A DNA stretch of 32,000 bases from Streptosporangiaceae bacterium (GTDB lineage Bacteria > Actinomycetota > Actinomycetes > Streptosporangiales > Streptosporangiaceae): positions 93,161 through 125,160 of the forward strand of contig DATGGU010000012.1 of the NCBI GenBank assembly GCA_035308365.1. Reading direction: 5' to 3'. The notes beneath the pieces were generated by a model that searched no databases, had not been told where the DNA came from, and saw nothing but the letters and a program-made list of their open reading frames with translations. Shown in pieces: positions 3 through 16,771 of this stretch. Position numbers and translations under genes: made by a program. The number at the start of each line of letters is the position of its first letter. The stretch's first letter is position 1.

Positions 3-734
3 GAGCGGCAGGCCGAGGATCTCGTCGGCGGCCGGATCGACGCGGCGTGGAACTCCCCGCTGGCCTGGATTCGGGCGCGGCGGCTGGCCGACGCCGCGGG
101 AATCAAGCTGGAAGCCCTGGTCATGCGGGACACCGACCGGGATCTGCGGTCCCTGGTGGTCACCAAGGTGGGCTCGGGCATCGAGAACCTGTCCCAGCTC
201 GACGGCCGCACGATCGCCGTCGGCGCCGTCGACTCGCCGCAGGCCAACCTGCTGCCGGTGTCGCTGCTGCGCAAGAACGGCCTGATCCCTGGGGAGAACC
301 TGACCGTCCGGCGGTTCGACGTGGGCGTCGGGCTGCACGGCGACCACATCGGGGGCGAGCGGGATGCCGCCCGCGCGCTCATGGCCGGTGCGGTGGACGC
401 GGCCTGCATGATCGACGCGAACCACCTGCTGTTCTCCCGCGAGGGTGTGCTGCCGGCCGGATCGACCACGGTCATCGGCGAGACCGACCCCTTCGATCAC
501 TGCAACATGACGATCGGGCCGTCCGCCGACCCGGCGGAGGTGAGCCGGTTCCGCGAGCTTCTCCTAGCCATGTCCTACGACGACGCCACGCTGCGCCCGC
601 TGCTTGACCTGGAGGGCCTGAAGCTGTGGTGTCCCGGCCGCACCAGCGGGTATCAGGCGCTGGAGACGGCCGTTGACGAGATTGGCTTCTACGGAAGTGG
701 TGGTGATGTCCGCGCCAGCGACTATCGACCTTGA
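3..734 (+). CDS. PhnD-like periplasmic substrate-binding protein (phosphonate/phosphite ABC type); 5' end lies outside the window
   Basis: The frame is open from nt 3 with no stop before the listed start at 123. It reads ...GRIDAAWNSPLAWIRARRLADAAGIKLEALV. Together with DGRTIAVGAVDSPQANLLPVSLLRKNG and MIDANH in the 123..734 ORF, this resembles the PhnD/transferrin-type SBP family. GC3 is high. Confidence 0.7.
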   Translation, partial: ERQAEDLVGGRIDAAWNSPLAWIRARRLADAAGIKLEALVMRDTDRDLRSLVVTKVGSGIENLSQLDGRTIAVGAVDSPQANLLPVSLLRKNGLIPGENLTVRRFDVGVGLHGDHIGGERDAARALMAGAVDAACMIDANHLLFSREGVLPAGSTTVIGETDPFDHCNMTIGPSADPAEVSRFRELLLAMSYDDATLRPLLDLEGLKLWCPGRTSGYQALETAVDEIGFYGSGGDVRASDYRP

Positions 735-1893
735 GGATCTAGGCCTGGAGTCCGGAGGCCACCTGCTCGTGCAGCGTGGCCTCCGGGACCTTCCGGTCGG
801 CGGGCGGCTGTCCGTCCGCGGCCAGGATCCCGCACTGCGCACCCACCTGGGTGCCTGGTGCCGCAGCCAGGGTCACGGCATCGACCTGACCGGCGTAACA
901 CCCGTCGTGGTCAAGGGCTCGGCGAGCAGCGCACGCTGGCACCGCGCCGAACGGGCCGGCCGTCCTGACGTCAATGGAGTGGTGCCACGGGCGGACGTCC
1001 GCTGGGGCCTCGCGCCACGTGGCGCCCTGGTGGAAGAAGGTGGCCCGCCGCTCAACGTGGACCTCATCGACCAGGATGTGGTCTGGGCGGACGCGGCCAG
1101 GCAGCTCTATGTGAACGGCGCCGCCCGGCAGTGGAACCCCGATACCGCCATCGCCTGGGACGCCGAGTTCGAGCTGCCCGAAGAGATCGAGACCGCGGTC
1201 GTTCAGGTGATGACCTACCTGATCGAGAACGAGTACGCGGCGCTGCAGATACCGGCCAAGTTCATCGGGCGCCTGCACCCGCACTATCGCGAGGTGATGC
1301 AGGTTCTCTCGGTGCAGGTCGCCGACGAGGCCCGCCACGTCGAGGTGTTCACCAGACGGGCGCTGCTGCGTTCCAGCGAACTCGGCGTGTCCGGCGCCGG
1401 TGGCCGGGCTTCGCTGCAGACCCTGCTCGACGAGCCGGATTTCTCGCTCGCCGCCTTCCTGCTTTCGGTGCTCGGAGAGGGCAGCTTCCTGGATCTGCTG
1501 TCCTTCATCGCGCGGCACGCACCCGACCCGGTGACCCGTGAGGTGGCCAGCCTCGCCCAGCGGGACGAGCGCCGGCACGTGGCGTTCGGGATGGCGCACC
1601 TGAAATACGCGGTCGAGGCCGACCGGTCGATGCTCGGCCGGATGCGGATGGCGGCCGAGCGCCGGCATGACGCACTGGCCAGTACCGCGGGACTCAACCA
1701 GGACGTCTTCGATTCGCTGATCGTCCTGGCCGCGCATTCCTGGTCGCCCGCCGCGATCACCGACGGCTGGAGCGCCGTTCAGCAGTTGCAGTACGACATG
1801 GACCAGGGCCGGCAGCGCCGCCTGGCTCAGCTCGGCTTTCCCGCTGACGAGGCGACCGAACTGTCCGCGCTGCACACCCGCAACTTCATGTAG
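706..1893 (+). CDS. Ferritin-like di-iron carboxylate protein with an N-terminal TusA/SirA-like domain that lacks the Cys
   Basis: It has the four-helix di-iron ligand pattern E / EXXH / E / EXXH (IENEYAAL, ADEARHVE, LGEGSF, RDERRHVAFG). The N-terminus (GGRLSVRGQDPALRTHLGAWCRSQGH) looks TusA-like but has no CP motif. ATG at 706 follows GGAAG and is preferred over the TTG at 673. It overlaps the upstream stop by 29 nt. Confidence 0.7.
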   Translation: MSAPATIDLEDLGLESGGHLLVQRGLRDLPVGGRLSVRGQDPALRTHLGAWCRSQGHGIDLTGVTPVVVKGSASSARWHRAERAGRPDVNGVVPRADVRWGLAPRGALVEEGGPPLNVDLIDQDVVWADAARQLYVNGAARQWNPDTAIAWDAEFELPEEIETAVVQVMTYLIENEYAALQIPAKFIGRLHPHYREVMQVLSVQVADEARHVEVFTRRALLRSSELGVSGAGGRASLQTLLDEPDFSLAAFLLSVLGEGSFLDLLSFIARHAPDPVTREVASLAQRDERRHVAFGMAHLKYAVEADRSMLGRMRMAAERRHDALASTAGLNQDVFDSLIVLAAHSWSPAAITDGWSAVQQLQYDMDQGRQRRLAQLGFPADEATELSALHTRNFM

Positions 1894-1947: not shown

Positions 1948-3651
1948 TCAATCGCTGTGCTGGCCGAGTTCCGCGTGGTTCAGCCACCGGCCGAGGGCCC
2001 GCAGCGAGTAGGTGTGCGCGATGAGGTCGTCGCTGTAGTTCATCTGGTCGTAGTAGAGCCCGACCGCGGCCGGCCGCCATGTTCCCGCGCTGTCCTGCTG
2101 GGTGACCAGCCAGTCCACCGCCCGGACAACCTGGTCGTCCCACGGCGGCAGGCCGGCCCGCAGCAGCGCGTACAGAGCCCAGCCCGTTTCCTCGGCGGTG
2201 CCGCCATCCGGCCCCTCGGTGGCTGTCATCGGCCAGGAGCCATCCGGCCGCTGGGTGGCCCGCAGCCACTGCCGGGCACGGGTGGCCACCGGATCGGTCA
2301 GCCGGCCGAACTCCGCGTACGTCTCCAGCACCTTGGCGGTGCCATGGGTGCGGTCCCTGAACCACAGCGACGGGATGCCACCGTCGGCACCCTGCTCGGT
2401 CTCGAAGTACCTGAACGCCCGCTCGACCGGCGACCGCGGGCCGCCGCCGCCGGCGCCGAACCGGCGCAGCGCACTGATCACGTGAGCGGTGACACCGGCG
2501 CACGGCCCGTCGTGGATCATGGATGAATTCCGCACCCACTCCGACCATGAGCCGTCCTTGTTCTGCCGGGACAGCAGCCAGCGCAGGCCAGCCTTGATCG
2601 CCGGGTGCTCCGCGGGGACGCCGAGCATGCCCAGGGTGGACATGACGACCGCGGTGTCCTCCGATTCGGGCCAGCCGGTCGGGTTGGCCCAGGACCAGCC
2701 GCCGGCGGGCAGCCTGAGCGCGTCGAAGGGCTCCGTCCATTGCGCCGAGAGCAGCCAGTCCCTGGTGGCCACCAGCCGCTCGTCAGCACTGACATCCGCA
2801 CGTTCGGCCAGGGCGGCCACGGCGTAGCCGGTCACCGCCAGTTCCAGGTCCCGGTCGATCGCCCACGATCCGTCCGGCCGCTGCGTCGCCAGCAGGTAGT
2901 CCAGGCAGCCGCGCTGGATGTCCGCGCCGATATCCGGGCCGGCCAGGCTGAGGCCCAGGTAGACCAGTGCGGCCATCAGCGGGCACTCTTCCATCCCGCC
3001 GTTGCTCCCCTGAACGGCGCGCAGCCAGGCCAGGCCCTTGGGCTCGGCCAGCCGGCGGGCGATCCTGGCCGGCCTGCTGAGCTTCATGACCCGCGACTGC
3101 CAGGCGCCCAGCCCGATGACCCCGGGCAGCGCGATCGACGCCCGGTTGCGGAACCTGGCCGGAAGCAGCATCACCTCGATGGGCTGGACCGGCTGATCAT
3201 CGGCGTCACGCAGCCCGGCCATCGCCCAGACGATCGCCACAAGCTCCCGCCATGTCCTGATGTTCGGCAGGATCGCGGCCTCGCCGCCGCTGGCTTCGAT
3301 GAACTTCGTGCCTTCGCCGATGCACCGCCTCGAACCGGCCGGATCAAGGGACTTCAGCGCGGCCAGCGCGAACGCCGTGACGCTCGGATCGCCGGGCGGA
3401 TCGCTGTCCGCCATGCCCCAGCCGCCATCGGACTGCTGGCTGGCCCGCAGCCAGCCGAGCCCGGCCTCGATCTTGTCCTGGTACGCGGCGCGATCCGCCT
3501 GGGCCAGGGCCAGCAGCCCGATCGCCGTCGGCATCGCGGAGGATGAGAGCCGGTCGGTCCAGCCACCATCCCCCCGCTGCTGGGCGTAGAGCAGGCCGGT
3601 GGCGGCGGCAACCGCTTCGGTTGCCCTCTTGTGCAGGTTGCGGCGTTCCAT
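1948..3651 (-). CDS. Squalene-hopene-cyclase-like class II terpene cyclase (prenyltransferase/squalene oxidase repeat protein)
   Basis: Repeated QW-type segments (QQRGDGGW, QQSDGGW, QRPDGSW, RQNKDGSW, TQRPDGSW, QQDSAGTW). The aligned acid motif is GWPESEDTAVV, where SHC and class II diterpene cyclases have DXDDTA. ATG at 3651 follows GGAGGAG. Confidence 0.85.
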   Translation of the reverse strand: MERRNLHKRATEAVAAATGLLYAQQRGDGGWTDRLSSSAMPTAIGLLALAQADRAAYQDKIEAGLGWLRASQQSDGGWGMADSDPPGDPSVTAFALAALKSLDPAGSRRCIGEGTKFIEASGGEAAILPNIRTWRELVAIVWAMAGLRDADDQPVQPIEVMLLPARFRNRASIALPGVIGLGAWQSRVMKLSRPARIARRLAEPKGLAWLRAVQGSNGGMEECPLMAALVYLGLSLAGPDIGADIQRGCLDYLLATQRPDGSWAIDRDLELAVTGYAVAALAERADVSADERLVATRDWLLSAQWTEPFDALRLPAGGWSWANPTGWPESEDTAVVMSTLGMLGVPAEHPAIKAGLRWLLSRQNKDGSWSEWVRNSSMIHDGPCAGVTAHVISALRRFGAGGGGPRSPVERAFRYFETEQGADGGIPSLWFRDRTHGTAKVLETYAEFGRLTDPVATRARQWLRATQRPDGSWPMTATEGPDGGTAEETGWALYALLRAGLPPWDDQVVRAVDWLVTQQDSAGTWRPAAVGLYYDQMNYSDDLIAHTYSLRALGRWLNHAELGQHSD

Positions 3652-3678
3652 AGCCGGCTCCTCCGGAGTGCGTCGTCG

Positions 3679-4731
3679 TCAGTTCTGGACGACCTGGTTT
3701 CTGCGCTTCACCCGGCTCGGTTCGTAGCTCTGCCGCATCATCACGATGGACGCCACCAGCCAGGCCCCCGCGGACGGTATGAGCAGCACCACGGCGATCC
3801 ACACGTTGCTCACGGCGGCGACGAATCCGGAGGTCAGGACCAGCCGCTCCACCACGATGATCTCGTGTGAGCGCAACGAGGTCAGCCGGGGTATCGGCCG
3901 CGGTGCGTGAATCAGCATGAGACCCGAGACCAGGCTCATCGCCACGGAGGCGGCCAGGAAGGGGACGTATCCGGCGAGGTGGAAGCGCGCGCCGAGGGTG
4001 AGCGGATAGCCGGCCGCCAGGCCCAGCCAGCCGAGGTCGAACGTGAGCAGCAACCACAGGGCCGGGGTGTCGCCGTGACGCACCGGGAACGTGCGGTAGC
4101 CACCGCTCCGGTCGCCGTCCCGGTCGCAGATGGCACCTATGACATTCGACCCGGAGTCGTGCAGCCAGAAGATCAGGGCGATCGGCAGCAGCCTGGGCTG
4201 CAGTGCGTGGCTGGTGGCCAGCGTGCCGTGGATAAAGGCCATGGCCGTCACCCCGCCGCGGACCAGATTGCCCCAAATGCCGTGCGCCTTAAAGTACTTG
4301 CTGTACGAGACGCCAAGCGTGAGGGCGGCAAGGACGACAAAGAAGTTCAATGGGTTCAGCAGAACCGCAATGACCATTCCGAGCAGCACGCAGACGACCA
4401 TGCCTGCGAATGCCTCCCAGGGCTTTACCCGGCCAGACGGCACCGGCCGCTGGGGCTTGGTTTTGGTATCCAGATCGCGGTCGAAATAGTCGCCACCATA
4501 CATGGCGGCGACCCAGCCGAGACTGGGTGCCAGCCAGGTTCCGATCAATCGCAGGGCAGGCCTGTCGCCCGACGCGAGCAGCGCGCCGGACACGCTGACC
4601 AAGCCGGTGTAAGAGAACAGGTCGAGCCGCCATATCTCGACATGCGCCACCAATCGGTCCCGCAGCTTGAGCCGTGGTTGCCCGGCGGCGAAGCCCGCGT
4701 CAGCACGGCCATAGGGAGACCTCACAGTCAC
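3679..4731 (-). CDS. UbiA-family membrane prenyltransferase or UbiA-type terpene synthase
   Basis: Two Asp-rich motifs (GGDYFDRDLD and ICDRDGDRSGGYRTFPV) in a polytopic hydrophobic protein. GTG at 4731 sits 8 nt after GAGAGGA. The stop is 27 nt upstream of the cyclase start, consistent with the same operon. Only the 3' third of the 1051-aa track ORF is real. Confidence 0.85.
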   Translation of the reverse strand: MTVRSPYGRADAGFAAGQPRLKLRDRLVAHVEIWRLDLFSYTGLVSVSGALLASGDRPALRLIGTWLAPSLGWVAAMYGGDYFDRDLDTKTKPQRPVPSGRVKPWEAFAGMVVCVLLGMVIAVLLNPLNFFVVLAALTLGVSYSKYFKAHGIWGNLVRGGVTAMAFIHGTLATSHALQPRLLPIALIFWLHDSGSNVIGAICDRDGDRSGGYRTFPVRHGDTPALWLLLTFDLGWLGLAAGYPLTLGARFHLAGYVPFLAASVAMSLVSGLMLIHAPRPIPRLTSLRSHEIIVVERLVLTSGFVAAVSNVWIAVVLLIPSAGAWLVASIVMMRQSYEPSRVKRRNQVVQN

Positions 4732-4941
4732 GACAGCGTTCCTCTCGGTTTGTCGGCATGCGTGTTCGCGGCCTGCGCGGACGAGGAGGAGGCAGAGCGC
4801 TCGGGTAGGGTCAGGTTTGCACGGAGTCTGGGAAAAGTGAAGTTGCACCCTGTTTATGTGCGGCAATGGCGACAACCGGTCTTTAGCCGCGGCCAAACGG
4901 GGAACTTCGCTTTTTATGGGATCGAGCGAAGGGGTGACGGC

Positions 4942-6237
4942 ATGCGAGCAATAACCCAGAGCGCGGAGCAGTTGGCCGGCTGGGTCATCGACGGCTGCCA
5001 GCGGACGCTGGATCTGGTGGCGGACCTGGACGACGAGCAGATGGTGGGCCCACTGCTGCCCACGGTAAATCCCCTGCTGTGGGAGATCGCCCACCTGGCC
5101 TGGTTCCAGGAGAAGTTCGTCCTCCGCCAGGCCTGCGGCCAGCCGCCGATCCTGAGCTTCGGGGACGCCCTGTACGACTCGGGGGCGATCCCGCACGACA
5201 CCAGGTGGCGGCTGGCGCTGCCGTCCCGCGAACAGACCGCCAGTTACATGCGCGAAGTGGCCGACCGGGTGGCGCAGGAGGTGCTGCGCCCGGACGCGAC
5301 CGACGTGGTGCGGCACTTCGCCCGGTACACCGTGCACCACTACGACATGCATACCGAGGCGCTGACATACACCAGGCAGACCCTGGGATTCCCGCCTCCC
5401 GTGCTGCCCGGGTCCACCGGCACACCGCAGGCGGCAGCCCTTCCCCGGGCGGGCGGACTGCCCGGGGACGTCGAGTTGCCGGGGGGGCGGTTCCTGCTCG
5501 GAGCCCTGCTGAGCGACCCGTTCGTCTACGACAACGAGAAATGGGCCCACCAGGTCGAGATCGCCCCGTTCGCCATCGCCCGGGCGCCGGTCACACAGGC
5601 CGAGTTCGCCGCGTTCGCCGACGACGGCGGCTATGCCGACACCAGGTGGTGGTCCGATGGTGGCGCCTGGCTGGGGGCCACCGGGGCGAAGCACCCGGTG
5701 TACTGGCGGCGCGACGGCGGCGGCTGGCAGCGCCGGCATTTCGACACCTGGGTGGACCTCGAGCCGCACCAGCCGGTGAGCCACGTGTGCTGGTGGGAGG
5801 CGGACGCGTACTGCCGCTGGGCGGGCCGCCGGCTGCCGACGGAGGCCGAGTGGGAGTACGCCGCAACCGGCGATCTCAAGCCGAGGCCCGTCTACCCCTG
5901 GGGTGATGCCGAGCCGGGCGCCGGGCACGCCGTGACCGACTGGCGCTGGTTCGGCCAGGCCGACGTCGCCGCCTGCGCCGAGGGGGACAGCCCGGCAGGC
6001 TGCCGGCAGATGATCGGCAACGTGTGGGAGTGGACGGCCAGCGACTTCACCGCCTACCCCAACTTCGAGCGGGACGCCTACTTCGAGAACTCCGAGCAGT
6101 TCTTCGGCCAGCGTAAGGTGCTGCGCGGGGGAGCCTGGGCGACCAGGGGCCGCCTGCTGCGGTCCACGTTGCGCAACTACTTCACCCACGAGCGCAGGGA
6201 TGTCGTGGCCGGCTTGCGCACCTGTGCGCCCCGCTGA
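4942..6237 (+). CDS. senA: EgtB/OvoA-family non-heme-iron C-S/C-Se bond-forming enzyme (DinB_2 + FGE-sulfatase domains), SenA-like
   Basis: DinB-type N-terminus (NPLLWEIAHLAWFQE). HX3HXE iron motif (HYDMHTE). FGE-sulfatase C-terminus (RLPTEAEWEYAA, GNVWEWT, RGGAW). ATG at 4942 follows AAGGGG. It sits directly upstream of the SenB-like GT. The symbol rests on context and could equally be an EgtB/OvsA-type relative. Confidence 0.8.
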   Translation: MRAITQSAEQLAGWVIDGCQRTLDLVADLDDEQMVGPLLPTVNPLLWEIAHLAWFQEKFVLRQACGQPPILSFGDALYDSGAIPHDTRWRLALPSREQTASYMREVADRVAQEVLRPDATDVVRHFARYTVHHYDMHTEALTYTRQTLGFPPPVLPGSTGTPQAAALPRAGGLPGDVELPGGRFLLGALLSDPFVYDNEKWAHQVEIAPFAIARAPVTQAEFAAFADDGGYADTRWWSDGGAWLGATGAKHPVYWRRDGGGWQRRHFDTWVDLEPHQPVSHVCWWEADAYCRWAGRRLPTEAEWEYAATGDLKPRPVYPWGDAEPGAGHAVTDWRWFGQADVAACAEGDSPAGCRQMIGNVWEWTASDFTAYPNFERDAYFENSEQFFGQRKVLRGGAWATRGRLLRSTLRNYFTHERRDVVAGLRTCAPR

Positions 6238-6246
6238 CGGCCGGAC

Positions 6247-7257
6247 ATGATTCTGCTCGTCAGCCCGGCCGCCGCCGACAGCACGACCGGCAACGGAGTC
6301 ACCGCGCGCCGCTGGGCGGGTTTTCTGCGCGAGCTGGGCCACCAGGTGGAGCTGAGCCGCGAATACCGCGGCGGCGGCTACGACGCACTGCTCGCGCTGC
6401 ACGCCCGCAAGAGCGCGGACGCCATCCGCGCCTTCCGGGCCAGCCATCCGGGTACCCCGGTGGTGCTCGCCCTGACCGGGACGGATCTCTATCCCGACCT
6501 CGCCACCGCCGGTGTGGATCCGGAGGTGCTGGCCATGGCCGACCGGCTGGTGCTGCTGCAGCCACGTGGCCTGGATCAGCTCGATCCGGCCACGCGGGAA
6601 AGGGCCCGGGTGATCGTGCAGTCGGTGCCCCCGATCGAGCGGAAACCGCCGCGGGCCGGCTGCTTCGAGGTGGCCTTCCTGGCTCATCTCCGGCCGGTTA
6701 AGGACCCGCTGCGGCCGGCCGAAGCGGTGCGCGAGCTGCCAGCCGGGTCCCGGATCCGGGTCACTCACCTCGGTGCAGCCCAGGACGCCGAACTCGGCGC
6801 CGCGGCGGCGGCCGAGTCGGCCGCGAACCCGCACTATGACTGGCTCGGCCCAAGGCCACGGAAGGAGGCACTGGACCTGCTGGCCCGCAGCCGCCTGCTC
6901 GTGCTGACCTCACGGCACGAAGGCGGCGCCAACGTCATCTCCGAGGCGCTGGCCGCCAGGCTGCCCATTGTCTGCTCGGCGATCCCGGGCTCGGTCGGGC
7001 TCCTTGGCGAGGACTATCCCGGCTACTTCCCGGTCGGCGACGGCGGCGCCCTCGCCCGTGCGCTGTATGACGCGGAGCAGGACACCGGCGGCTACTACGG
7101 CGCGTTGCGCGAGCACTGCGCCTCGCTGGCCGGCCTGGTCGACCCCGAACGTGAACGCCGTGCCTGGGCCGGCCTGCTGGCCGAGCTGGCCCTGCCGGCC
7201 AGCGGGTTCGCAGACTTATTCAAAACCAGCCCGGCAGCCTTGACGCCAGGTTCGTGA
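6247..7257 (+). CDS. senB: GT-B glycosyltransferase, SenB-like (selenosugar synthase family)
   Basis: 336 aa. N-terminus MILLVSPAAADSTTGNGVTARRWAGFLRELGH and C-terminal GT4-like core (EGGANVISEALAARLPIV). It starts 10 nt after the senA-like stop. As I recall, the pairing with an EgtB homolog matches the published sen cluster. Confidence 0.7.
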   Translation: MILLVSPAAADSTTGNGVTARRWAGFLRELGHQVELSREYRGGGYDALLALHARKSADAIRAFRASHPGTPVVLALTGTDLYPDLATAGVDPEVLAMADRLVLLQPRGLDQLDPATRERARVIVQSVPPIERKPPRAGCFEVAFLAHLRPVKDPLRPAEAVRELPAGSRIRVTHLGAAQDAELGAAAAAESAANPHYDWLGPRPRKEALDLLARSRLLVLTSRHEGGANVISEALAARLPIVCSAIPGSVGLLGEDYPGYFPVGDGGALARALYDAEQDTGGYYGALREHCASLAGLVDPERERRAWAGLLAELALPASGFADLFKTSPAALTPGS

Positions 7258-7300
7258 GCCGCGGTAGCTGGCTGCTCACCAGCGGTTCTGAATAAGCCTC

Positions 7301-8332
7301 TCAGTAGCTGCGGCCGACGGCCAGGTCGGTGAGGATGCTGAGCCGGTCGCGGCTCGGGCTGGGTGGCAGTTGGTCGAGGGCTGCCCGTGACTGCTTCGCG
7401 TACTGCCGGGCCATCTCGGTGGCCGCGCAGATCGCGCCGGTGCGGTCCAGGATCTCGCGCACGACCGCCAGGACCGGCCCGGCATCGCCGGGACCGAACA
7501 GGGCGTCGCTGATGAGCTGCCGGTCCGCCGGGGTTGCGGTGGAGCAGGCCAGGATGATCGGCAAGGTCGGGCGCCCGTTCTTCACGTCGCTGGCCTGCGG
7601 CTTGCCCATGACCTCAGTGTCGCTGACATAGGGGAGCAGGTCGTCATACATCTGGAAGGCAAGGCCGAGGGACTCACCGAAGTCGCACAGCGCGTCCACC
7701 AGGTTGGGTGGCCCGCCGCCAAGCAGGGCGCCGCTCTTGCACGCGCCGCGGAACAGCGCCGCGGTCTTCAGGCTGATCATCAGCAGATAGGCATCCAGGT
7801 CCAGGCTGCGGTCGCGGTGCAACTCCGCTTCCATGCTCTGCCCCCGGCACAGATCCAGGCCGGCCTGGGCCACCGCCTCCAGCGCCGCGACCACCCGGGC
7901 GGCGGGCACCCCGCTGTGGTGGCACTCGGCCAGGCCGGCGAACAGGTCGAAGATCAGCGCATCGCCGGCGATGATCGCGTCGGCGATCCCGTATGCGCAC
8001 TGCACGGAGGGCCGGCCGCGGCGCAGGTCGTCACCGTCGATGATGTCGTCGTGGATCAGGCTCGCGACGTGGCCACATTCGGCGCCGACGGCGGCCGGGA
8101 GAACCGCGGTGGCGCTGCCACCCACCGCGAGAGCGGCTTCGAGCAGCAGCGACGGCCGGAAGAGCTTGCCGGTCGGGACCAGCGCGTAGTGGCAGATCGA
8201 GGCCAGCAGCCCGGGCCGGCCGGTCCAGCGGGTTTCGAGCGCGCCCCCGACCAGCGAGGTCGTGGTTTCACCGGCGGCGATGCAGTCGTCGTGCTGCTGC
8301 CGAATCCCGGTCTCCAGCGTGCCATCCGTCAT
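7301..8332 (-). CDS. Polyprenyl diphosphate synthase (GGPP/FPP synthase family)
   Basis: First Asp-rich motif is LIHDDIIDGDDLRRGRPS. The second motif region is FQMYDDLLPYV, followed by GKPQASDVKNGRPTLP. ATG at 8332 follows GGGAGTG. Confidence 0.9.
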   Translation of the reverse strand: MTDGTLETGIRQQHDDCIAAGETTTSLVGGALETRWTGRPGLLASICHYALVPTGKLFRPSLLLEAALAVGGSATAVLPAAVGAECGHVASLIHDDIIDGDDLRRGRPSVQCAYGIADAIIAGDALIFDLFAGLAECHHSGVPAARVVAALEAVAQAGLDLCRGQSMEAELHRDRSLDLDAYLLMISLKTAALFRGACKSGALLGGGPPNLVDALCDFGESLGLAFQMYDDLLPYVSDTEVMGKPQASDVKNGRPTLPIILACSTATPADRQLISDALFGPGDAGPVLAVVREILDRTGAICAATEMARQYAKQSRAALDQLPPSPSRDRLSILTDLAVGRSY

Positions 8333-8411
8333 CGCTGCTCACTCCCGCCCATGGTGCTGCCTGGGCGCACGCATCCATTGCTGGCTGCAGGATTCATCGT
8401 CAAACTCCAAA

Positions 8412-8443
8412 GGTCTTTATGATCACCGGTCTTTATGATCACC
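8412..8443. repeat. Perfect 16-bp tandem direct repeat (GGTCTTTATGATCACC x2) upstream of the polyprenyl synthase gene
   Basis: Read directly from the sequence. It lies 80-110 nt upstream of the start at 8332, in a locally AT-richer stretch. On the coding strand it sits just upstream of a TTGACG hexamer. Each unit contains the TGATCA palindrome. Confidence 0.6.
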
Positions 8444-8521
8444 GCAGAAATGACCCGATGGGCGCTTGACGCTAGCAGTTGAAACGCCGCGGAGAAAGAG
8501 CTTGACTGACAGTCGACAATC

Positions 8522-9178
8522 TTAGCTGACCGGCCTATTCTCAAGACTCCATTCCAGCATCCCGCCGTTCAGCCGCCTGGCCCGCCAGCCATTGGACCGC
8601 AGCAAGCGGACGGCCGCATAAGCGAGCACGCAGTACTCGCCCCGGCAGTATGCTACGACCTCGAGATCAGCGGGTAGTTCGGACAGCCGCTGGCATAGTT
8701 CGTCCAGCGGTATTCCGATTGCACCCTCGATGTGCGCGGCGGTGAACTCCGTCGCCGGCCGCACGTCGAGCAGGACCAGTTCGCCGTTCCTGAGCCCGTC
8801 GAGCAGGTCGTCCCGGCTGATCGCCTCGACCTCGTCTTCCCCGAGAAACTCTCTGGCCACCCGCTCGGTCTCGGCCAGGTACATCATCGCCACGTCGCGC
8901 AGCATGACATAAAGCCTGGCCACGTCGCCGGCGGCCAGCCGGTAGTAGATCCGGGCCCCGTCCCTGCGGCCGCGCACCAGCCCGCCGGCCCGCAGCGTCT
9001 GCAGGTGTGCCGAGGCCGTGGTGAGCTTGAGTGCGGTGGCCTGGGCCAGTGACTCCACGGTACGCTCGCCCTGCGCGAGCACGTCTATGATCTGCAGCCT
9101 TTTCGGGTTCGCCAGCGCCTTACCGACGCGAGCCAGCTGATCGAAAAGTGCATCCTTTGTGCGAGCGCGATCAGACAT
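8522..9178 (-). CDS. ArsR/SmtB-family HTH regulator fused to a C-terminal rhodanese domain
   Basis: ArsR wHTH (LANPKRLQIIDVLAQGERTVESLAQATALKLTTASAHLQTLRAGGLV). Rhodanese domain (LLDVRPATEFTAAHIEGAIGIP ... VVAYCRGEYC active-site loop). Confidence 0.85.
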   Translation of the reverse strand: MSDRARTKDALFDQLARVGKALANPKRLQIIDVLAQGERTVESLAQATALKLTTASAHLQTLRAGGLVRGRRDGARIYYRLAAGDVARLYVMLRDVAMMYLAETERVAREFLGEDEVEAISRDDLLDGLRNGELVLLDVRPATEFTAAHIEGAIGIPLDELCQRLSELPADLEVVAYCRGEYCVLAYAAVRLLRSNGWRARRLNGGMLEWSLENRPVS

Positions 9179-9347
9179 GTCAAGAGTCTCTCACGGCCGT
9201 TATCTCATACCTATATGGCGGCGCCTAATACGGGGTTCAGCCCACTAGTACCTGTGCCGGTTCGCCGCTAGACTCCCGTCGATCGCCGGCCGCTTTGGGC
9301 CGGCCCTCAGATAATGGGCCTTGACATTTCACTGAGTTCACGGACTG

Positions 9348-10529
9348 GTGATTACTGTGGATGCCGTAGCCTTTCCCCGGCCGATGACTCAAGACGGCCT
9401 GCCCGATCCCCTGCTGCTCGAGCTGGCCGCGGACAACCCCGTGCTGCCCGTCGCCGGGCCAGGCGGCAAGGCGTGGCTGATCACCGGCCACGAAGCCGTT
9501 CGCGAGGCGCTGTCCGAGCCCTCCCGGTTCACCAGCGTCATCGATCCGGCGGTGACCGACGCCAGGGCCCGCGCGGGTGTGTCGATGGTGGGGCTGGACC
9601 CACCCGACCACACCCGGGTACGGAAGCTGGCCGCGAAGGCCTTCACCGCCCGGCGCATCCAGGGGCTCGTGCCGAGCGTGGAACGTGTGGTCACCACGTT
9701 GCTGGACGCGATGGCGGAGGCCGGCCCGCCGGCCGACCTGGTGACGTCGCTCGCGGTGCCCCTCCCGCTGCACATGATGTGCCAGATGCTCGATCTGCCG
9801 GCCGAGGACCAGCCCGGCTTCCTGCGCTGGTCCGACGTGTTCACCGGCATGAACACCGGCTACACGATGGAGGAAGTCGCCGACGCCAACGACAAGCTGC
9901 ACGCCTACATGCTCGATCTGGCGGCGCGGCGCAGGAAGCACCTGGGCGAAGACCTGTTGTCCGATCTTATCCGCGCCCGCGATGGCGAGGACGCCCTGAC
10001 CGAGCAGGAACTGCTCAACACGATGGTCCTGTTGCTGGTGGCCGGGCACCAGACCACGGTGCGCGCCATCGCCAGGAGCGTGCTGGTCCTGCTCCACTCG
10101 GGTCAGTGGAAGCGGTTCGCCGCGGCCGAGGTCACCGCCGAGCAGGTGGTCGAGGAGGCGTTGCGGCACCAGACGCCGATCGACACCGGCCTGTTCCGCC
10201 GGGCTGCCGTGGACACCGAGATCGCCGGTGTCCAGATCAAGGCCGGCGAGCAGGTGTTCCTCAGCGTGCACCTGGCCAACTTCGACCGCAACGCCTGGCA
10301 CGAGCCGCACGTGTTCGACCCCGGCCGCGGTGACCAGCGGCACCTGGCATTCGGCCACGGTGTCCACTTCTGCCTCGGCGCGCCGCTGGCCAGACTGGAG
10401 CTCAGCACCGCCCTCAGCCTGCTGGCGGCCCGGTTCCCCGGCCTGCGGATGGACGTCCCGCTTGACGAGCTGACCTGGACGGTGGGTTCATGGCTCAACA
10501 GCCTGGTCGCTCTTCCCGTCACCTGGTGA
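9348..10529 (+). CDS. Cytochrome P450
   Basis: Heme-binding loop FGHGVHFCLGAPLARLE, EXXR (EEALRH) and I-helix LLVAGHQTT. The start is GTG at 9348, with ATG at 9384 as an alternative. Confidence 0.9.
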   Translation: MITVDAVAFPRPMTQDGLPDPLLLELAADNPVLPVAGPGGKAWLITGHEAVREALSEPSRFTSVIDPAVTDARARAGVSMVGLDPPDHTRVRKLAAKAFTARRIQGLVPSVERVVTTLLDAMAEAGPPADLVTSLAVPLPLHMMCQMLDLPAEDQPGFLRWSDVFTGMNTGYTMEEVADANDKLHAYMLDLAARRRKHLGEDLLSDLIRARDGEDALTEQELLNTMVLLLVAGHQTTVRAIARSVLVLLHSGQWKRFAAAEVTAEQVVEEALRHQTPIDTGLFRRAAVDTEIAGVQIKAGEQVFLSVHLANFDRNAWHEPHVFDPGRGDQRHLAFGHGVHFCLGAPLARLELSTALSLLAARFPGLRMDVPLDELTWTVGSWLNSLVALPVTW

Positions 10530-10703: not shown

Positions 10704-12197
10704 ATGAGCATCGAAATCAGTGCTGCGGACCGGGCGAAGCTACTGCATGCCCTGGTGGAAGAGATCGAAAACTATCTTGATACCGCGGCCGATGACACTG
10801 GCCGCTCGCCGGTGGCCGATGCGGACGTCGACGAGCTGCTGGCCGCCTTTGATTTCGATCAGCCGGTAGCCGCGGCCGATGCCCTGGATCTAGCCATTCG
10901 CGGATTGCGTGATATGCAGCCGCGCACCCGGCACCGGCGGTATTTCGGATTGTTCGATGCCACCCCCACGACCATGTCAATTATCGGTGAAGCGCTGTCC
11001 GCCACCTTCAACCCATGCCTGGCCACCCGCAACGGGAGCCCGTTCGGCATCGCCGCGGAGGAAAAGCTGGTTGCCGCATTTGGCGAGAAATTCGGTTATC
11101 CGCCCTGCGAGGTGGACGGAATCCTGACCAGCGGCGGGTCGGAGACGAATCTTTCGGCCATGCTGATGGCCCTTACCCACCGGATTCCCAGCTATCCGCA
11201 GACCGGCCTGATCGGGCTGGCCAGCCGTCCGGTCGTTTACGTTTCGCCGGAGGCCCACCCATCGGTGCCGCGTGCGGCCCGCCTGACCGGCCTGGGTGCC
11301 GAGTCGGTGCGCGAGGTTGAGACCGACTGCGCGCAGCGCATGGACCTGGCCGCGCTGGAGAAGATGATCGTCGCCGACCAGCGGGCCGGGCTGACGCCGG
11401 TTGCCGTGGTGGTGACCGCGGGCACAACCGGCGCGGGCGCCATCGACCCGATCGACGGAGCCGCCTGCATCGCTGCCAGGCACGGGCTGTGGCTGCACGT
11501 CGATGCGGCGTGGGGCGGCGCGGCCGCGCTGCTGCCCGATCCCGACCCGGCATTCCAGGGCCTGGCCAGGGCGGACTCGCTCACCTTCGACCCGCACAAG
11601 TGGATGTCGGTGCCGCTTGGCCTGGGAATGCTGCTCACCCGCCATCGTGGCCTGCTGGCCAGGACCTTCTCGGCCGGCCCGACATTTCTCGACGCCGATG
11701 GGCGGGAGGCGGAGCCATTCAGCCGGTCGCTGCGCTGGTCCCGTAGCTTCGCAGCACTGAAACTGCTGCTTTCACTCGCGGTGACCGGCTGGCAAGGGTT
11801 CGAGGAAACCTTGCGGCAGCAGATGAGGCTGGCCGACGAATTGCGCAAAGGGCTGGCCGGATCGGGCTGGCAGATCGTCAATGACACACCACTGCCGCTG
11901 GTTTGTTTCCTGCCGGCCGACCGGGCCGAACAGCACCCGCACAGATTGCGACTTATCGCCAGGGCCATCAATTCCACCGGTGACGCTCATATCTTCGTGG
12001 TCAAGTCCGGCGGACGGCACGTGCTGCGAGCCTCCATCACGAACTACGCGACCACGGAAGCGGACGTCGTGGCGCTGATCGGCCTGCTCGACGACGCGGC
12101 CCGGCGGTCACAGGGCTTACCCGGCCCGTCACACAACCGGCCCGCATGGGAGGTGCCGCCGCGATGGTCGATACGAAGACCGCGAGCCCCCCGCTGA
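10704..12197 (+). CDS. Group II pyridoxal-phosphate-dependent decarboxylase
   Basis: SGGSETNLSAM, HVDAAWGG and the PLP-lysine motif DPHKWMSVPLG. Confidence 0.85.
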   Translation: MSIEISAADRAKLLHALVEEIENYLDTAADDTGRSPVADADVDELLAAFDFDQPVAAADALDLAIRGLRDMQPRTRHRRYFGLFDATPTTMSIIGEALSATFNPCLATRNGSPFGIAAEEKLVAAFGEKFGYPPCEVDGILTSGGSETNLSAMLMALTHRIPSYPQTGLIGLASRPVVYVSPEAHPSVPRAARLTGLGAESVREVETDCAQRMDLAALEKMIVADQRAGLTPVAVVVTAGTTGAGAIDPIDGAACIAARHGLWLHVDAAWGGAAALLPDPDPAFQGLARADSLTFDPHKWMSVPLGLGMLLTRHRGLLARTFSAGPTFLDADGREAEPFSRSLRWSRSFAALKLLLSLAVTGWQGFEETLRQQMRLADELRKGLAGSGWQIVNDTPLPLVCFLPADRAEQHPHRLRLIARAINSTGDAHIFVVKSGGRHVLRASITNYATTEADVVALIGLLDDAARRSQGLPGPSHNRPAWEVPPRWSIRRPRAPR

Positions 12198-13450
12198 CCT
12201 CATGGCGCCGGGACTTCCGGCAGCTCTGGACAGCGCAGACGGTGTCGTCGTTCGGCAGCCAGATCACCACGGTGGCGCTGCCGCTGACGGCCGCGGGGCT
12301 GCTGCACGCCAGCGCGGGGGAGATGGGCATACTCGCGGCCGGGTCCACCCTGCCCAACCTGCTGTTCTCGTTCTATTTCGGGGCGCTGGTCGACCGGGTC
12401 TTCCGGCGCTGGGCGCTGCTGGTGTGGGCCGACCTGATCCGGATGGTGCTGCTCGCCCTGATCCCGGTGGCATGGGCGGCCGGTTTCCTGTCGGTCGGCC
12501 TGCTGATCGGCATCGCGTTCGTGACCGGCGCGGCCAGCCTGTCGTTCGGGATCACCTGGTCCGCGTATCTGCCCTCGGTGGTTCCGGCCGGCAACCTGGT
12601 CGAAGCGAACAGCAAGCTGCAGGCCAGCATGACGATCGCCGATCTCGGCGGTGTCAGCCTGGCCGGAGCGCTCGTGCAGCTCTTCGGCGCGCCCAACGCG
12701 ATGACCATCGACGCCGTCTCGTTCGCCTTCTCGGCGGTGTTCCTGGCCCGGATGCGTTACCGGGACGGCCAGAAGCCCGCCCCGCGTGAGGGCAAGCCCA
12801 ACATGTGGCGCGAGGTGGGCGAGGGCCTTCGGTACTGCGTCAGCGAACCGCGGCTCCGGGCGATCGCCGGGGCGGCGGCCAACCTGAACCTGTTCAGCAG
12901 CGTCGCCCTGGCGCTCGGCATCCTGTTCCTCAACCGGACACTGCGGATTCCGCCATACCTGATCAGCCTGATCTTCGCCGCGTGGGGAGTGGGCGCCGTG
13001 GGGGGCTCGCTGCTGGCCCCGATGCTGGGACGGCGGTTCACCGAGGGGCGCACGATCATCGCCGCGTCGGCCGTCTTCTCCGTCGCCCTGTTCGCCTACC
13101 CGCCGGTGCACGGGCCGGTGTGGTTCGAGTCCACCGCGCTGATCATCGTCAACATCGCCTTCGGCTTCGCGGTGTTCGTCTTCGACGTGCACACTGCCGC
13201 GCTGCGCCAGGTGATATCCCCGGACGAGCTGCAGGGCCGGACCGCGTCGGCGATGGCGTTCGTGACCCAGGGGGTCAAGCCGGCCGGCGCCCTGCTCGGC
13301 GGCGTGCTGGGCGAGACCATCGGAATCCGGGGGGCGCTGTGGTTCGCCGCCGCCGGAACGATCACCACCGTGCTGTGGACCTACCGGTCCCCCCTGCGCC
13401 TGGGGAAGGGAGCCGAGGCCGTCACGGCCGAACCAGATCCAGTGACCTGA
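12164..13450 (+). CDS. MFS transporter
   Basis: About 12 hydrophobic segments. N-terminus is WRRDFRQLWTAQTVSSFGSQ, typical of the EntS/MFS_3-like group. ATG at 12164 lies 10 nt after GGGAGG and is preferred over 12146. Confidence 0.8.
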   Translation: MVDTKTASPPLTSWRRDFRQLWTAQTVSSFGSQITTVALPLTAAGLLHASAGEMGILAAGSTLPNLLFSFYFGALVDRVFRRWALLVWADLIRMVLLALIPVAWAAGFLSVGLLIGIAFVTGAASLSFGITWSAYLPSVVPAGNLVEANSKLQASMTIADLGGVSLAGALVQLFGAPNAMTIDAVSFAFSAVFLARMRYRDGQKPAPREGKPNMWREVGEGLRYCVSEPRLRAIAGAAANLNLFSSVALALGILFLNRTLRIPPYLISLIFAAWGVGAVGGSLLAPMLGRRFTEGRTIIAASAVFSVALFAYPPVHGPVWFESTALIIVNIAFGFAVFVFDVHTAALRQVISPDELQGRTASAMAFVTQGVKPAGALLGGVLGETIGIRGALWFAAAGTITTVLWTYRSPLRLGKGAEAVTAEPDPVT

Positions 13451-14728: not shown

Positions 14729-15642
14729 CCAGGGAAAAGTTTACGATGGCCGAAACGCCGGAGCTGCCGCCGATCGTGTGCGCGGTGGACGACCGTTACG
14801 TCAGCCCGCTCTGTGTCTTCATGCAGTCGCTGTCCGCGGCCCACCCCGGCCTGCCGCTCCGGGTGATCGTGATGCACCAGGGCCTGACCGACGGCAACTG
14901 CCACCGAATCCATTTCCACGCCGAACGGCTCGGGCTGCGAGCCGAACTGCGGGCGGCGCCGGGGGTGGACCCGAGGTACCCGGTGAGCATGTGGGTGACC
15001 GACGCGACGTATCTGCGGCTTGCGTTGCCGGATGTGGTCACGGACTACCCGCTCGCCTTGTACATGGACGTGGATCTCATTGTCCTGCGGGATCTGCGCC
15101 GCCTGCTGACCACCGGGCTGGACGGGTTCCCGCTGGCCGCGGTCCGTGACCCGCTCAACCCGACGCTGGGCACCGGATTCGGCCTGCCCGGCTGGCAGAA
15201 CCTTGGCCTGCCTGCCTCCAGGGAATACTTCAACGGCGGCGTCATACTCTTCAACCTGCCCGAATGCCGCCGGCGCGGGACCTTTGAAGCGAGCCAGCGA
15301 TTCGCCCGTGATATGCCGCGACACATTTTGTTCTGGGACCAGGACGCGCTGAACTGGGCAGTGGACGACACATGGCTGCGGCTGGACAGATGCTGGAACA
15401 CATTGTCGGTATCAGCGCTGAGCGAGACGTTCCAGGACTGGAAATACCTCGCCGAAGACGTCCTGCCGTTCAGCCGGCTCATCGAGGACGAGCGCACGGC
15501 CGCGGTGTTCCACTTCGCGGGCCCGCTCAAGCCGTGGAATCCGGACTATCCGGCCGGCCCGGCCCGTGATCTCTACGCGTCTTTCGCCCGGCAGGTCGCC
15601 GGCAGCGAGCCGCTGGCAGGTGTGACTGAGGAGAAGGCATGA
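14725..15642 (+). CDS. Family 8 glycosyltransferase (retaining; LPS glycosyltransferase/glycogenin-like)
   Basis: CAVDDRYV, DxD (YMDVDLIV), YFNGGVILFNL and WDQDALN. ATG at 14725 overlaps the upstream stop (ATGA). Confidence 0.85.
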   Translation: MTREKFTMAETPELPPIVCAVDDRYVSPLCVFMQSLSAAHPGLPLRVIVMHQGLTDGNCHRIHFHAERLGLRAELRAAPGVDPRYPVSMWVTDATYLRLALPDVVTDYPLALYMDVDLIVLRDLRRLLTTGLDGFPLAAVRDPLNPTLGTGFGLPGWQNLGLPASREYFNGGVILFNLPECRRRGTFEASQRFARDMPRHILFWDQDALNWAVDDTWLRLDRCWNTLSVSALSETFQDWKYLAEDVLPFSRLIEDERTAAVFHFAGPLKPWNPDYPAGPARDLYASFARQVAGSEPLAGVTEEKA

Positions 15643-16748: not shown

Positions 16749-16771
16749 CTCCGGTGTCCTCGTTCGTCTTC

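Follow-up and report, generated by a model that had tools for sequence, protein, structure and literature searches.

A selenoneine gene pair conserved within actinobacterial terpenoid clusters, and its possible selenium-containing meroterpenoid product

We analysed a 32,000-nt stretch of the Streptosporangiaceae bacterium contig DATGGU010000012.1 (positions 93,161 to 125,160; hereafter the window), in which the selenoneine genes senA and senB are embedded in a terpenoid gene cluster. In lineages whose class II terpene cyclase is at least 61% identical to that of the window, senA-senB lay directly beside the cyclase or UbiA-family prenyltransferase gene in eight of nine, and the ninth (L092) probably shares the arrangement. 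The juxtaposition of sen and terpene genes is not chance. The sen and terpene halves are each known; their conserved fusion appears to be new. Judged from gene content, the most likely product would be a terpenoid covalently joined to selenoneine, that is a selenium-containing meroterpenoid, a prediction we hold with about even confidence.

Genes across the whole window were picked by third-position GC and family matches, and their boundaries were cross-checked against independent gene calls for the same contig in three other assemblies (loci L095-L097). Overall composition of the window is about 70% G+C. The core genes, in order between 1948 and 10529, are:

1948..3651, minus strand: squalene-hopene cyclase (SHC)-like class II terpene cyclase, 567 aa (PF13243, 129 bits, and PF13249, 92 bits; SQHop_cyclase_N/SQHop_cyclase_C)
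3679..4731, minus strand: UbiA-family prenyltransferase, 350 aa (PF01040, 131.9 bits)
4732..4941, unstranded: divergent intergenic region of exactly 210 nt (boundaries agreed by the gene calls of L095-L097)
4942..6237, plus strand: SenA (NF041186, 483.5 bits, cut-off 420)
6247..7257, plus strand: SenB, selenosugar synthase (Se-glycosyltransferase; TIGR04348, 359.8 bits, cut-off 300)
7301..8332, minus strand: polyprenyl diphosphate synthase, 343 aa (PF00348, 196.9 bits; all NCBIfam equivalog cut-offs missed)
8522..9178, minus strand: regulator fusing an ArsR/SmtB helix-turn-helix domain to a rhodanese domain (PF01022 and PF00581; NF033788, 79.5 bits, cut-off 55)
9384..10529 (alternative start 9348), plus strand: cytochrome P450 (PF00067; start 9384 from the independent gene call)

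All genes named by the initial annotation of this DNA were recovered at the coordinates and on the strands it gave. The 210-nt shared region that it placed between UbiA and senA, at 4732-4941, was reproduced exactly by the independent gene calls, and the polyprenyl synthase does converge on senB, across a gap of 43 nt. SenB starts 9 nt past the end of senA.

A senA-centred scan, pattern-based and covering one genome per GTDB species, listed 80 loci, each searched over 10 kb on either side by tblastn with every window protein. SenB was adjacent in 64 of the listed loci and SelD in 19, and the closest senA loci listed were L001 (71%; a Propionibacteriales metagenome-assembled genome, MAG) and L002 (69%; Haloechinothrix aidingensis). 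None of the 80 carried a cyclase, UbiA or polyprenyl synthase homolog within these 10-kb flanks. This negative is misleading because the scan was pattern-based, sampled bacterial senA broadly and missed the real relatives of the window. In the reciprocal test the cyclase was searched, and the genomic context of its homologs was read over a range of identities. Direct gene context was obtained for 12 lineages, mostly on metagenome contigs and with flanks of at most 10 kb. The loci outside the window contig, with their cyclase identities, are:

L081, 73%, metagenome: UbiA-cyclase at the contig start, with a cut senA diverging upstream (70% identity)
L082, 72%, metagenome: SelD, polyprenyl synthase, ABC importer, senB-senA diverging from UbiA-cyclase, ArsR-rhodanese
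L091, 68%, Logan assembly of a sequencing run: cyclase, senA, senB and ferredoxin in one direction, with a 3-nt gap
L083/84, 66%, Streptomyces sp.: cyclase, senA, senB and ferredoxin in one direction, with an 18-nt gap, then dxs-ispG-ispH and UbiA
L092, 65%, Micromonosporaceae MAG: UbiA-cyclase, ArsR-rhodanese, dxs, SelD, polyprenyl synthase, start of an importer
L093, 63%, MAG: cyclase, senA, senB and importer in one direction, with a 37-nt gap
L085, 62%, Amycolatopsis sp. TNS106: senB-senA diverging from UbiA-cyclase-glycosyltransferase
L094, 61%, Actinokineospora sp.: senB-senA diverging from UbiA-cyclase-glycosyltransferase
L086, 58%, Crossiella cryophila: no senAB within the flanks
L088, 54%, Nonomuraea terrae: no senAB within the flanks
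L087, 52%, Saccharomonospora xinjiangensis: no senAB within the flanks

In the window contig and in L081, L082, L083/84, L085, L091, L093 and L094, senA-senB lay 0-250 nt from the cyclase or UbiA gene. The interleaving that the initial annotation had proposed to look for in relatives is thus conserved. The linkage spans Streptosporangiaceae, Streptomyces, Amycolatopsis, Actinokineospora and Micromonosporaceae, amounting to at least four families and at least two gene orders. In one order senA-senB and UbiA-cyclase diverge, with senA next to UbiA; in the other the cyclase is followed by senA and senB on the same strand with gaps of 3-37 nt, an arrangement that appears operon-like. For L092, co-location is inferred because a Micromonosporaceae contig of equal size (23,777 bp) carries P0172, annotated 'SenA, partial', its position fitting the place where the gene order of L082 predicts senA. 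Ten further cyclase matches are putatively co-located with SenA, each lying on a contig of exactly the same size as a SenA match. L086-L088 might carry sen genes farther out, because the flanks read there reached at most 10 kb. A metagenome scan with the cyclase returned two short loci only, which were uninformative on senAB.

Trees were built by neighbour-joining on Kimura-corrected distances. In a tree of 121 cyclases all sen-linked members fell in one 70-member clade, split from the sen-free cyclases in 50/50 bootstraps. The UbiA tree showed a parallel split, with a sen-linked clade of 80 out of 126 again separated from sen-free sequences in 50/50 bootstraps. Both gene orders were interleaved on the cyclase tree, indicating that rearrangements were repeated whilst the sen link was kept. 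A mobile sen island that inserted once beside a terpene cluster and was merely inherited thereafter would fit the lack of terpene neighbours at the 80 listed senA loci of other bacteria, the self-contained islands of L001 and L002, and a dip in base composition at 4-5 kb of the window (GC 0.643). Such hitch-hiking is barely credible, in our judgement, because the link recurs in all nine lineages examined of the cyclase clade (eight of them directly) and in at least four families. Tight adjacency was also kept while gene orders differed, although the observed rearrangements should break a neutral linkage, and both the cyclase and the UbiA clade track the presence of sen.

The selenium half of the cluster was assigned from curated models and active-site residues. 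Against the EgtB model the window SenA scored 313.5 bits, below the cut-off of 360. A Streptosporangiaceae MAG encodes a protein 100% identical to it under the annotation 'selenoneine synthase SenA', which marks the source of the window as a MAG of this family. It is of the hercynyl-selenosugar selenoxide synthase type, with the composite active-site motif N-E-H/H-R/H/H/Y/N/N-Y-F/R. Compared with the published SenA motif, xNEH--HRHxHYYN(F/Y)(F/Y)R (PMC11030361), it matches 12 of the 13 informative positions that could be mapped, the exception being Tyr to Asn at residue 383. Its iron ligands (His), its N/E/R for selenosugar binding, its catalytic Tyr and its N-(F/Y)-(F/Y)-R for hercynine binding are all kept. 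Residue 383, Asn in the window, is Tyr in SenA and Met (Met401) in OvsA. The equivalent of Asn383 occurs exactly in nine SenAs of a 100%-supported actinobacterial clade, including the standalone L001 and L002, so that this difference from the senABC-type enzymes runs throughout the clade.

The best solved-structure match for the window SenA was OvsA, the ovoselenol enzyme (298.6 bits over the full length), followed by Variovorax SenA (221 bits). Since this could change the predicted chemistry, the published motif rules were applied and the alignments read directly. OvsA belongs to the same selenosugar-dependent NHISS lineage (PMC11030361). At the substrate-discriminating residues the window protein has N-Y-F...R, the hercynine type of SenA, versus Q-A-Y in OvsA. 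Of the three positions that tell OvsA apart, N(383)/N(412)/Y(413) in the window protein, the second and third are SenA-type. Against the window protein the engineered, hercynine-accepting OvsA-YNF variant also outscored wild-type OvsA (298.6 versus 293.6 bits). We therefore rejected an identity as OvsA, given the SenA-type N-Y-F and the higher score of the variant. The ovoselenol pathway combines OvsA/OvsM with SenB/SenC, and no OvsM-type partner was found in the window; OvsA is almost exclusive to aquatic gammaproteobacteria (PMC11030361).

The closest standalone sen loci, L001 and L002, have EgtD (PF10017, 370-383 bits) directly upstream of senA, then senB and selD, with a selenate-type importer in L002. 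This position of EgtD supports hercynine as the substrate of the whole actinobacterial SenA clade. Unlike these islands the window lacks egtD, and none was found in any terpene-linked locus; egtD adjoins senA in 15 of the 80 listed general senA loci. The initial annotation had held that orthologous senAB pairs without terpene neighbours in relatives would speak for chance juxtaposition. L001 and L002 are such pairs, and both are complete standalone egtD-senA-senB-selD islands, so that test was too coarse as worded. We read this as the capture, by a terpenoid cluster, of an ordinary actinobacterial selenoneine module, which draws its hercynine from housekeeping egt genes. Compared with the senABC system of Variovorax paradoxus and Amycolatopsis palatopharyngis (Kayrouz et al. 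2022), the window shares SenA and SenB, both above curated cut-offs, and has a SelD within its bounds. It differs in having no adjacent senC and in the embedding of the pair between the UbiA/cyclase operon and the polyprenyl synthase.

The selenophosphate synthetase gene of the window lies far from this pair, no SelD being found within 19 kb of senB:

26252..27286, plus strand: SelD (selenophosphate synthetase) with an in-frame TGA at 26297-26299 (TIGR00476, 335-350 bits, cut-off 125)

This SelD is of the selenocysteine (Sec) type and is not a cluster SenC. Its identity to the cluster-type SelD is only 50%, whilst the SelD of L082 is 65-72% identical to those of L092 and L002; in L082 and L092 the gene is clustered with the sen-terpene genes. 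The window SelD is probably a housekeeping enzyme that supplies the pathway. Its mechanical open reading frame (ORF) starts at 26345, and the in-frame sequence upstream reads RLTQFSSGAG-TGA-ACKF. Set against the E. coli SelD motif GAG-C17-GCK, the TGA falls at the position of the catalytic Cys/Sec. The TIGR00476 score, 335 bits for the mechanical ORF, becomes 350 bits when translation begins just past the TGA, and 3' of the TGA lies a hairpin (dG -26.8, z -2.0). The window SelD is thus a probable selenoprotein. A Sec-type SelD in turn implies an organism with Sec-decoding machinery.

Relatives of the window carry more of the selenium pathway than the window does. In four of them a substrate-binding protein adjoining senB, accompanied by an ABC permease and ATPase, matched TIGR04553, 'putative selenate ABC transporter' (358-370 bits, cut-off 250). 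With importer, SelD and senAB all in the cluster, most relatives hold the whole selenium module (import, activation, SenB and SenA) inside the terpenoid cluster, and the window copy is a reduced version of it. The first gene of the window (3-734) was considered as a selenate importer and rejected, being an Rv1680-like substrate-binding protein unlike the TIGR04553 proteins of the relatives.

Further genes of possible relevance to selenium chemistry stand in individual relatives. Downstream of the cluster in L094 (14171-18849) is a molybdopterin oxidoreductase set consisting of an Fe-S subunit, an NrfD-like membrane subunit, a catalytic subunit of the PhsA/DMSO-selenate family and a chaperone. 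No component reaches its curated cut-off; as a candidate reductase of selenate or selenite, the set could feed the pathway. Thiol-redox genes comprise a type I cysteine dioxygenase (L092, 17427-17999), a mycoredoxin-like glutaredoxin (L093, 17493-17840; 87.6 bits, below the cut-off of 89.5) and a thioredoxin (L083, 1182-1511). Such enzymes might reduce selenoxide or selenenic-acid intermediates.

On the terpene side, the initial annotation had described the cyclase as 'DXDD-type'. Its acid motif is in fact GWP-ESEDTA-VV (ExED), and ES(E/D)DTA-type variants were found in 120/120 homologs examined, marking a family signature rather than a defect of the window gene. The best solved-structure match was squalene-hopene cyclase (E=4e-27), with bacterial class II diterpene cyclases at E=1e-7 to 1e-9. 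Distant relatives were drawn from a search of 1.84 billion representative proteins. Those at 39-48% identity were mostly DxDD-like (DSEDTAM, EADDTAT, DIDDTSY, DVDDTAY), and AtoE-type motifs (MALETAE, ASMETAE, VTLESAE) appeared only at about 34-38%. Canonical labdane-type cyclases have DxDDTA, from which the ESEDTA of the window differs by conservative D to E changes at positions 1 and 3. Because ExED is acidic at all three DxDD positions, protonation of an alkene and of an epoxide are both possible for this cyclase.

The nearest known systems are the atolypene, phenalinolactone, brasilicardin, tiancilactone and longestin clusters, whose common genes encode a polyprenyl synthase, a UbiA enzyme, a flavin-dependent epoxidase and a noncanonical, SHC-like class II cyclase with a mean length of 566.5 aa (PMC11600129, PMC11317874). 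There, UbiA prenylates a small C3 unit before the cyclase acts by opening an epoxide (PMC11600129, PMC11317874). With this AtoE/PlaT2/Bra4 type the window shares a UbiA with intact motifs, a polyprenyl synthase, a non-DxDD SHC-like cyclase, a P450 and glycosyltransferases. Accessory genes of the methylerythritol phosphate (MEP) pathway likewise occur in its relatives, and all four core genes are present in the sen-free sister clusters of its cyclase. At 567 aa the cyclase lies within the AtoE-like range of about 534-604 aa and has SHC-like fold domains. It is set apart by the published motif: AtoE-like xxxE(T/S)xE has a single acid, whereas the window has E-S-E-D-T-A-V, with acids at positions 1, 3 and 4 and Val at 7; the acid at position 4 does agree with the broader AtoE-like form xxx(E/D)(T/S)xE. 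The published enzyme names CcrTC and UtaTC suggest Crossiella and Umezawaea, two genera that also occur among the matches of the window cyclase. A flavin-dependent epoxidase of PlaT1/AtoF type, a core gene of AtoE-like clusters, is also absent from the window and its sen-linked relatives. Filing the enzyme as an AtoE-like meroterpenoid cyclase is thus only partly tenable, as neither motif nor epoxidase agrees. By its sequence it would work like a member of the AtoE/PlaT2 meroterpenoid group but sits between that group and the canonical enzymes.

A different use of the same gene kinds is known from the platensimycin/platencin cassette, which contains the class II cyclase PtmT2, the UbiA-type PtmT1 acting as a synthase rather than a transferase, a GGPP synthase and MEP genes, and is not known to include a selenium module. 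By analogy, the window cyclase could act on GGPP and its UbiA as a PtmT1-like class I-type synthase, giving a hydrocarbon scaffold unrelated to the selenium genes. This platensimycin-like labdane system would agree with the retention of all DxDD acid positions in ExED, with the DxDD type of the nearest outside relatives and with the MEP-pathway genes that accompany the cluster in relatives; the ptm cluster has the same gene combination. We regard it as highly unlikely. The cyclase is SHC-like and not CPP-synthase-like, being far nearer to squalene-hopene cyclase than to the class II diterpene cyclases, and its length fits the 566.5-aa mean of the meroterpenoid cyclase family. Moreover, the sen-free sisters hold UbiA, flavin monooxygenase, polyprenyl synthase and cyclase as described for meroterpenoid clusters, and the sen linkage would be left unexplained.

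Both Asp-rich motifs of the window UbiA are intact (D81YFDRDLD and D203RDGD). Sen-linked UbiA proteins share five clade-specific substitutions, four of which closely precede the Asp-rich motifs, by 4-5 positions for the first motif and 2-6 for the second. The polyprenyl synthase has the motifs DDIID and DDLLP, and the small residues A and S at positions -5 and -4 before the first motif suggest a product of C20 or longer. Its orthologs were found at 61-68% identity in L082, L092 and L093. Unannotated ORFs of 320-399 aa beside the polyprenyl synthase in relatives were considered as missing enzymes and rejected, as they are mutually unrelated and gave weak APH-like, amidohydrolase-like or no matches.

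The oxygenases differ between sen-linked and sen-free clusters. P450 orthologs were found at 55-60% identity in L083, L085, L092 and L094, and at no more than 39% in sen-free clusters. A FAD_binding_3 monooxygenase stands beside UbiA in all three sen-free loci (L086-L088) and in 0/9 sen-linked ones; the window, its 8-kb upstream flank and all sen-linked loci gave no homolog. The sen-free loci also hold the cyclase with four or five P450s and a glycosyltransferase, and two have PhyH-type oxygenases. These differences suggest that the pathway changed when sen was gained, the flavin monooxygenase being absent and the P450 ortholog kept.

The missing monooxygenase, as a counterpart of the epoxidase, raises the possibility that selenium enters the terpenoid through a pathway intermediate and not as finished selenoneine. 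UbiA would alkylate the selenosugar made by SenB, or an electrophilic selenoxide or selenenic acid formed by SenA would attack the prenyl chain at its terminal alkene and so start the cyclisation within the class II cyclase, selenium standing in for the epoxide of the sen-free sisters. One of the gene orders puts senA directly after the cyclase on the same strand, and in the literature the SenA product passes through a selenoxide. This route is nevertheless unlikely. It is inferential throughout, the conserved P450 could supply an epoxide, a cyclase with all three acids in ExED might simply protonate an alkene, and the conserved hercynine-binding residues argue that hercynine is still the substrate of SenA. 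To our knowledge, selenium-initiated polyene cyclisation has no enzymatic precedent. The more specific proposal, that selenium replaces oxygen as the trigger, giving a C-Se bond in place of the hydroxyl that arises from the flavin-made epoxide in the sister clusters, is a long shot. If true, it would be the enzymatic counterpart of synthetic selenium-induced polyene cyclisations and a new mode of class II initiation.

Two other redox enzymes touch on this oxygenase difference. An ArsO-like/MSMEG_0569-like flavin monooxygenase is encoded in L083 (7401-8447), L084, L091 (1-1017) and L092 (1870-3009), being conserved at 40-72% identity in the cluster versions of Streptomyces and Micromonosporaceae; this enzyme type oxidises soft heteroatoms, and it could act on selenium or as an epoxidase. 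The truncated first gene of the window (3-734; 2137-4114 upstream in L095) pairs with an Rv1679/FadE16-like acyl-CoA dehydrogenase, which also adjoins the cyclase or ArsR-rhodanese genes in L082 (77%) and L090 (82%). The dehydrogenase may belong to the Streptosporangiaceae version of the cluster and could replace the flavin monooxygenase.

We favour the selenoneine-terpenoid conjugate because the link survives rearrangement in at least four families, one gene order is operon-like and genes for selenium import and activation sit inside the cluster. Presence of sen is moreover mirrored by a split in both the cyclase and the UbiA tree, and loss of the flavin monooxygenase maps to that node. Computation shows which genes are present, that their catalytic motifs are intact, that their co-location is conserved and how the clades are arranged; all chemical steps are inferred, as are the regulation, the acceptor used by UbiA and whether prenylation or cyclisation comes first. 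In the proposed route, selenophosphate would come from SelD, which in the window is the Sec-type enzyme 19 kb away and in relatives a dedicated copy clustered with a putative selenate ABC importer. SenB would make the selenosugar, and SenA would couple it oxidatively to hercynine, supplied by a housekeeping EgtD elsewhere in the genome, giving selenoneine via a selenoxide/selenenic-acid stage. The polyprenyl synthase would provide a diphosphate of C20 or longer (C20-C25). UbiA would then move the prenyl group, linear or already cyclised, onto selenoneine, with its very nucleophilic selenium as the simplest point of attachment. Formation of the polycyclic skeleton would fall to the ExED cyclase, and tailoring to the conserved P450 and to glycosyltransferases, and the ArsR-rhodanese protein would probably regulate the cluster in response to reactive sulfur or selenium.

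Precedents exist for parts of this route. Joining of a cyclic diterpene to a polar nucleophile is known from tuberculosinyl-adenosine (Rv3377c/Rv3378c), where the nucleophile is adenosine, and from cyslabdan, where it is a mycothiol-derived N-acetylcysteine. Their logic is alike, a class II cyclase plus attachment to a polar nucleophile, and cyslabdan places a low-molecular-weight thiol on a labdane. The joining step differs, since Rv3378c is not a UbiA enzyme and cyslabdan arises from a P450 epoxide and mycothiol; neither is known to involve selenium or a histidine betaine. In the pla/ato systems a small acceptor is first prenylated by UbiA, and the class II cyclase works on the result (PMC11317874, PMC11600129).

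Several observations weigh against a conjugate. The known acceptors of related UbiA enzymes are of the C3 keto-acid or PEP type, not thiols or selenols (PMC11317874, PMC11600129), and the substitutions that define the sen-linked UbiA clade are conservative (A/M for S/L; V/I for L/L). The window copy has neither an importer nor a dedicated SelD. The comparison rests on the 12 lineages read directly, mostly metagenome contigs, and about ten whose linkage is indirect. Terpene-linked SenAs could not be separated from standalone actinobacterial SenAs on the tree (0/100 bootstraps for monophyly), and their motif is identical. SenA thus bears no sign of adapting to a new role, and neofunctionalisation in the terpene context was rejected for want of a separate clade or a distinct motif. 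Finally, Amycolatopsis palatopharyngis, in which free selenoneine was first found, is reported to accumulate it (bioRxiv 10.1101/2022.04.13.486033). This strain probably carries a cassette of the sen-linked type, and its sen cluster would then be of the hybrid type. Its UbiA (P0310, 52% identity) and cyclase (P0370) are both on contigs of 238,697 bp, and the cyclase clusters at 90% with P0048 (63% identity), which belongs to the sen-linked clade. Free selenoneine together with a probable cassette also fits two independent products.

The most serious rival is that one co-regulated locus makes two separate products, free selenoneine and a selenium-free glycosylated terpenoid, held together by co-regulation (for example through ArsR-rhodanese) or by a joint physiology. 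Selenoneine might shield the producer, or a step sensitive to oxygen, or might act as a redox cofactor or carrier that is set free again, like ergothioneine in lincomycin biosynthesis. This reading, possible though less probable than the conjugate, draws on the SenA indistinguishable from standalone selenoneine synthases and on the free selenoneine of A. palatopharyngis. The sen-free sister clusters also show that the scaffold can be made without selenium, and some clusters have thioredoxin, mycoredoxin-like and ferredoxin genes. Co-regulation alone, however, leaves unexplained why senA-senB follow the cyclase in operon-like fashion, why the link persists through several rearrangements in at least four families, and why the flavin monooxygenase was lost and UbiA split in parallel at sen acquisition. 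An embedded precursor module in a biosynthetic cluster usually feeds the final product. Of the two outcomes suggested in the initial annotation, a terpenylated selenoneine or meroterpenoid is thus favoured over co-regulated separate products, and neither is proven.

The same annotation had taken the architecture to be undescribed, which agrees with the literature: no publication linking sen genes with terpene genes turned up in full-text searches, whose coverage leaves out most subscription-journal papers. We know of few dedicated selenium small-molecule pathways (selenoneine, ovoselenol and selenosugar precursors), and of none that feeds a larger secondary metabolite. A survey of AtoE-like clusters gives methyltransferases, sulfotransferases, acyltransferases, dioxygenases and nonribosomal peptide synthetases as neighbours, and no sen genes (PMC11600129/PMC11317874). 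The original selenoneine preprint makes no mention of terpene, cyclase or prenyl (bioRxiv 10.1101/2022.04.13.486033). If the conjugate is real, the cluster family predicts a new compound class, the first selenium-containing terpenoid natural products, and both the acceptor scope of UbiA-type enzymes and the chemistry of SHC-like meroterpenoid cyclases would be widened. The association of senAB with an ExED cyclase provides a rule for genome mining, and the prediction is testable in cultured strains, namely A. palatopharyngis, a probable carrier and selenoneine maker, Streptomyces and Amycolatopsis.

In the 210-nt gap, a promoter-like block oriented toward senA consists of TTGCAC (4817-4822), a 16-nt spacer and GAAGTT (4839-4844). 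Alignment with four relatives gave TTGCA(C/T), 16-17 nt and then TAGGAT, TACGAT or GAGGAT in most, with CGAGTA in L094. We take this conserved block as a putative promoter. An E. coli-type promoter/terminator scan and an inverted-repeat search of the gap gave nothing convincing. Orthologs of the ArsR-rhodanese regulator were found at 67-74% identity in L081, L082, L090 and L092. Around the UbiA 5' end and the divergent gap (4001-5000), G+C falls to 0.643 and AT skew rises to 0.137, and the third-position GC of UbiA drops toward the gene start. The composition dip fits a regulatory region or an old recombination junction.

The genes flanking the core cluster are:

706..1893, plus strand: 395-aa protein with two E..H diiron-type motifs (DEARH and DERRH; weak Pfam matches to AurF, E=5e-4, and N-terminally to TusA, E=7e-3)
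10704..12197, plus strand: group II PLP-dependent decarboxylase (PF00282, 206.9 bits), cluster membership uncertain
12164..13450, plus strand: MFS transporter, a possible exporter (PF05977 and PF07690), membership uncertain
13595..14728, plus strand: macrolide-type (UDPGT/EryCIII-like) glycosyltransferase, probably tailoring (TIGR01426, 260.4 bits, cut-off 260)
14725..15642, plus strand: GT8-family glycosyltransferase (PF01501, 96.6 bits; start from the independent gene call)

The 395-aa protein, on the cyclase flank, had no homolog in any other locus examined and is a lineage-specific candidate oxygenase or sulfur/selenium carrier. The decarboxylase likewise had no homolog among the other sen-linked loci examined and is specific to the lineage of the window. 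GT28/EryCIII-like glycosyltransferases directly adjoin the cyclase in L085, L093 and L094, and a GT8 homolog (46% identity) adjoins the ArsR-rhodanese gene in L081. As mechanical ORFs the two window glycosyltransferases (13595-14728 and 14440-15642) overlap by 289 nt; with the GT8 start at 14725 the overlap is 4 nt, a pattern typical of translational coupling.

Between the cluster and SelD lies a metal(loid)-handling island at 16499-21319, within which were found:

CpaM corrinoid-protein-associated methyltransferase (NF043040, 254.5 bits, cut-off 180)
HgcAB-like fusion with an NVWCASAGG cap-helix-like motif (NF043039, 301.8 bits, cut-off 285)
heavy-metal P-type ATPase and MerB-like organometallic lyase

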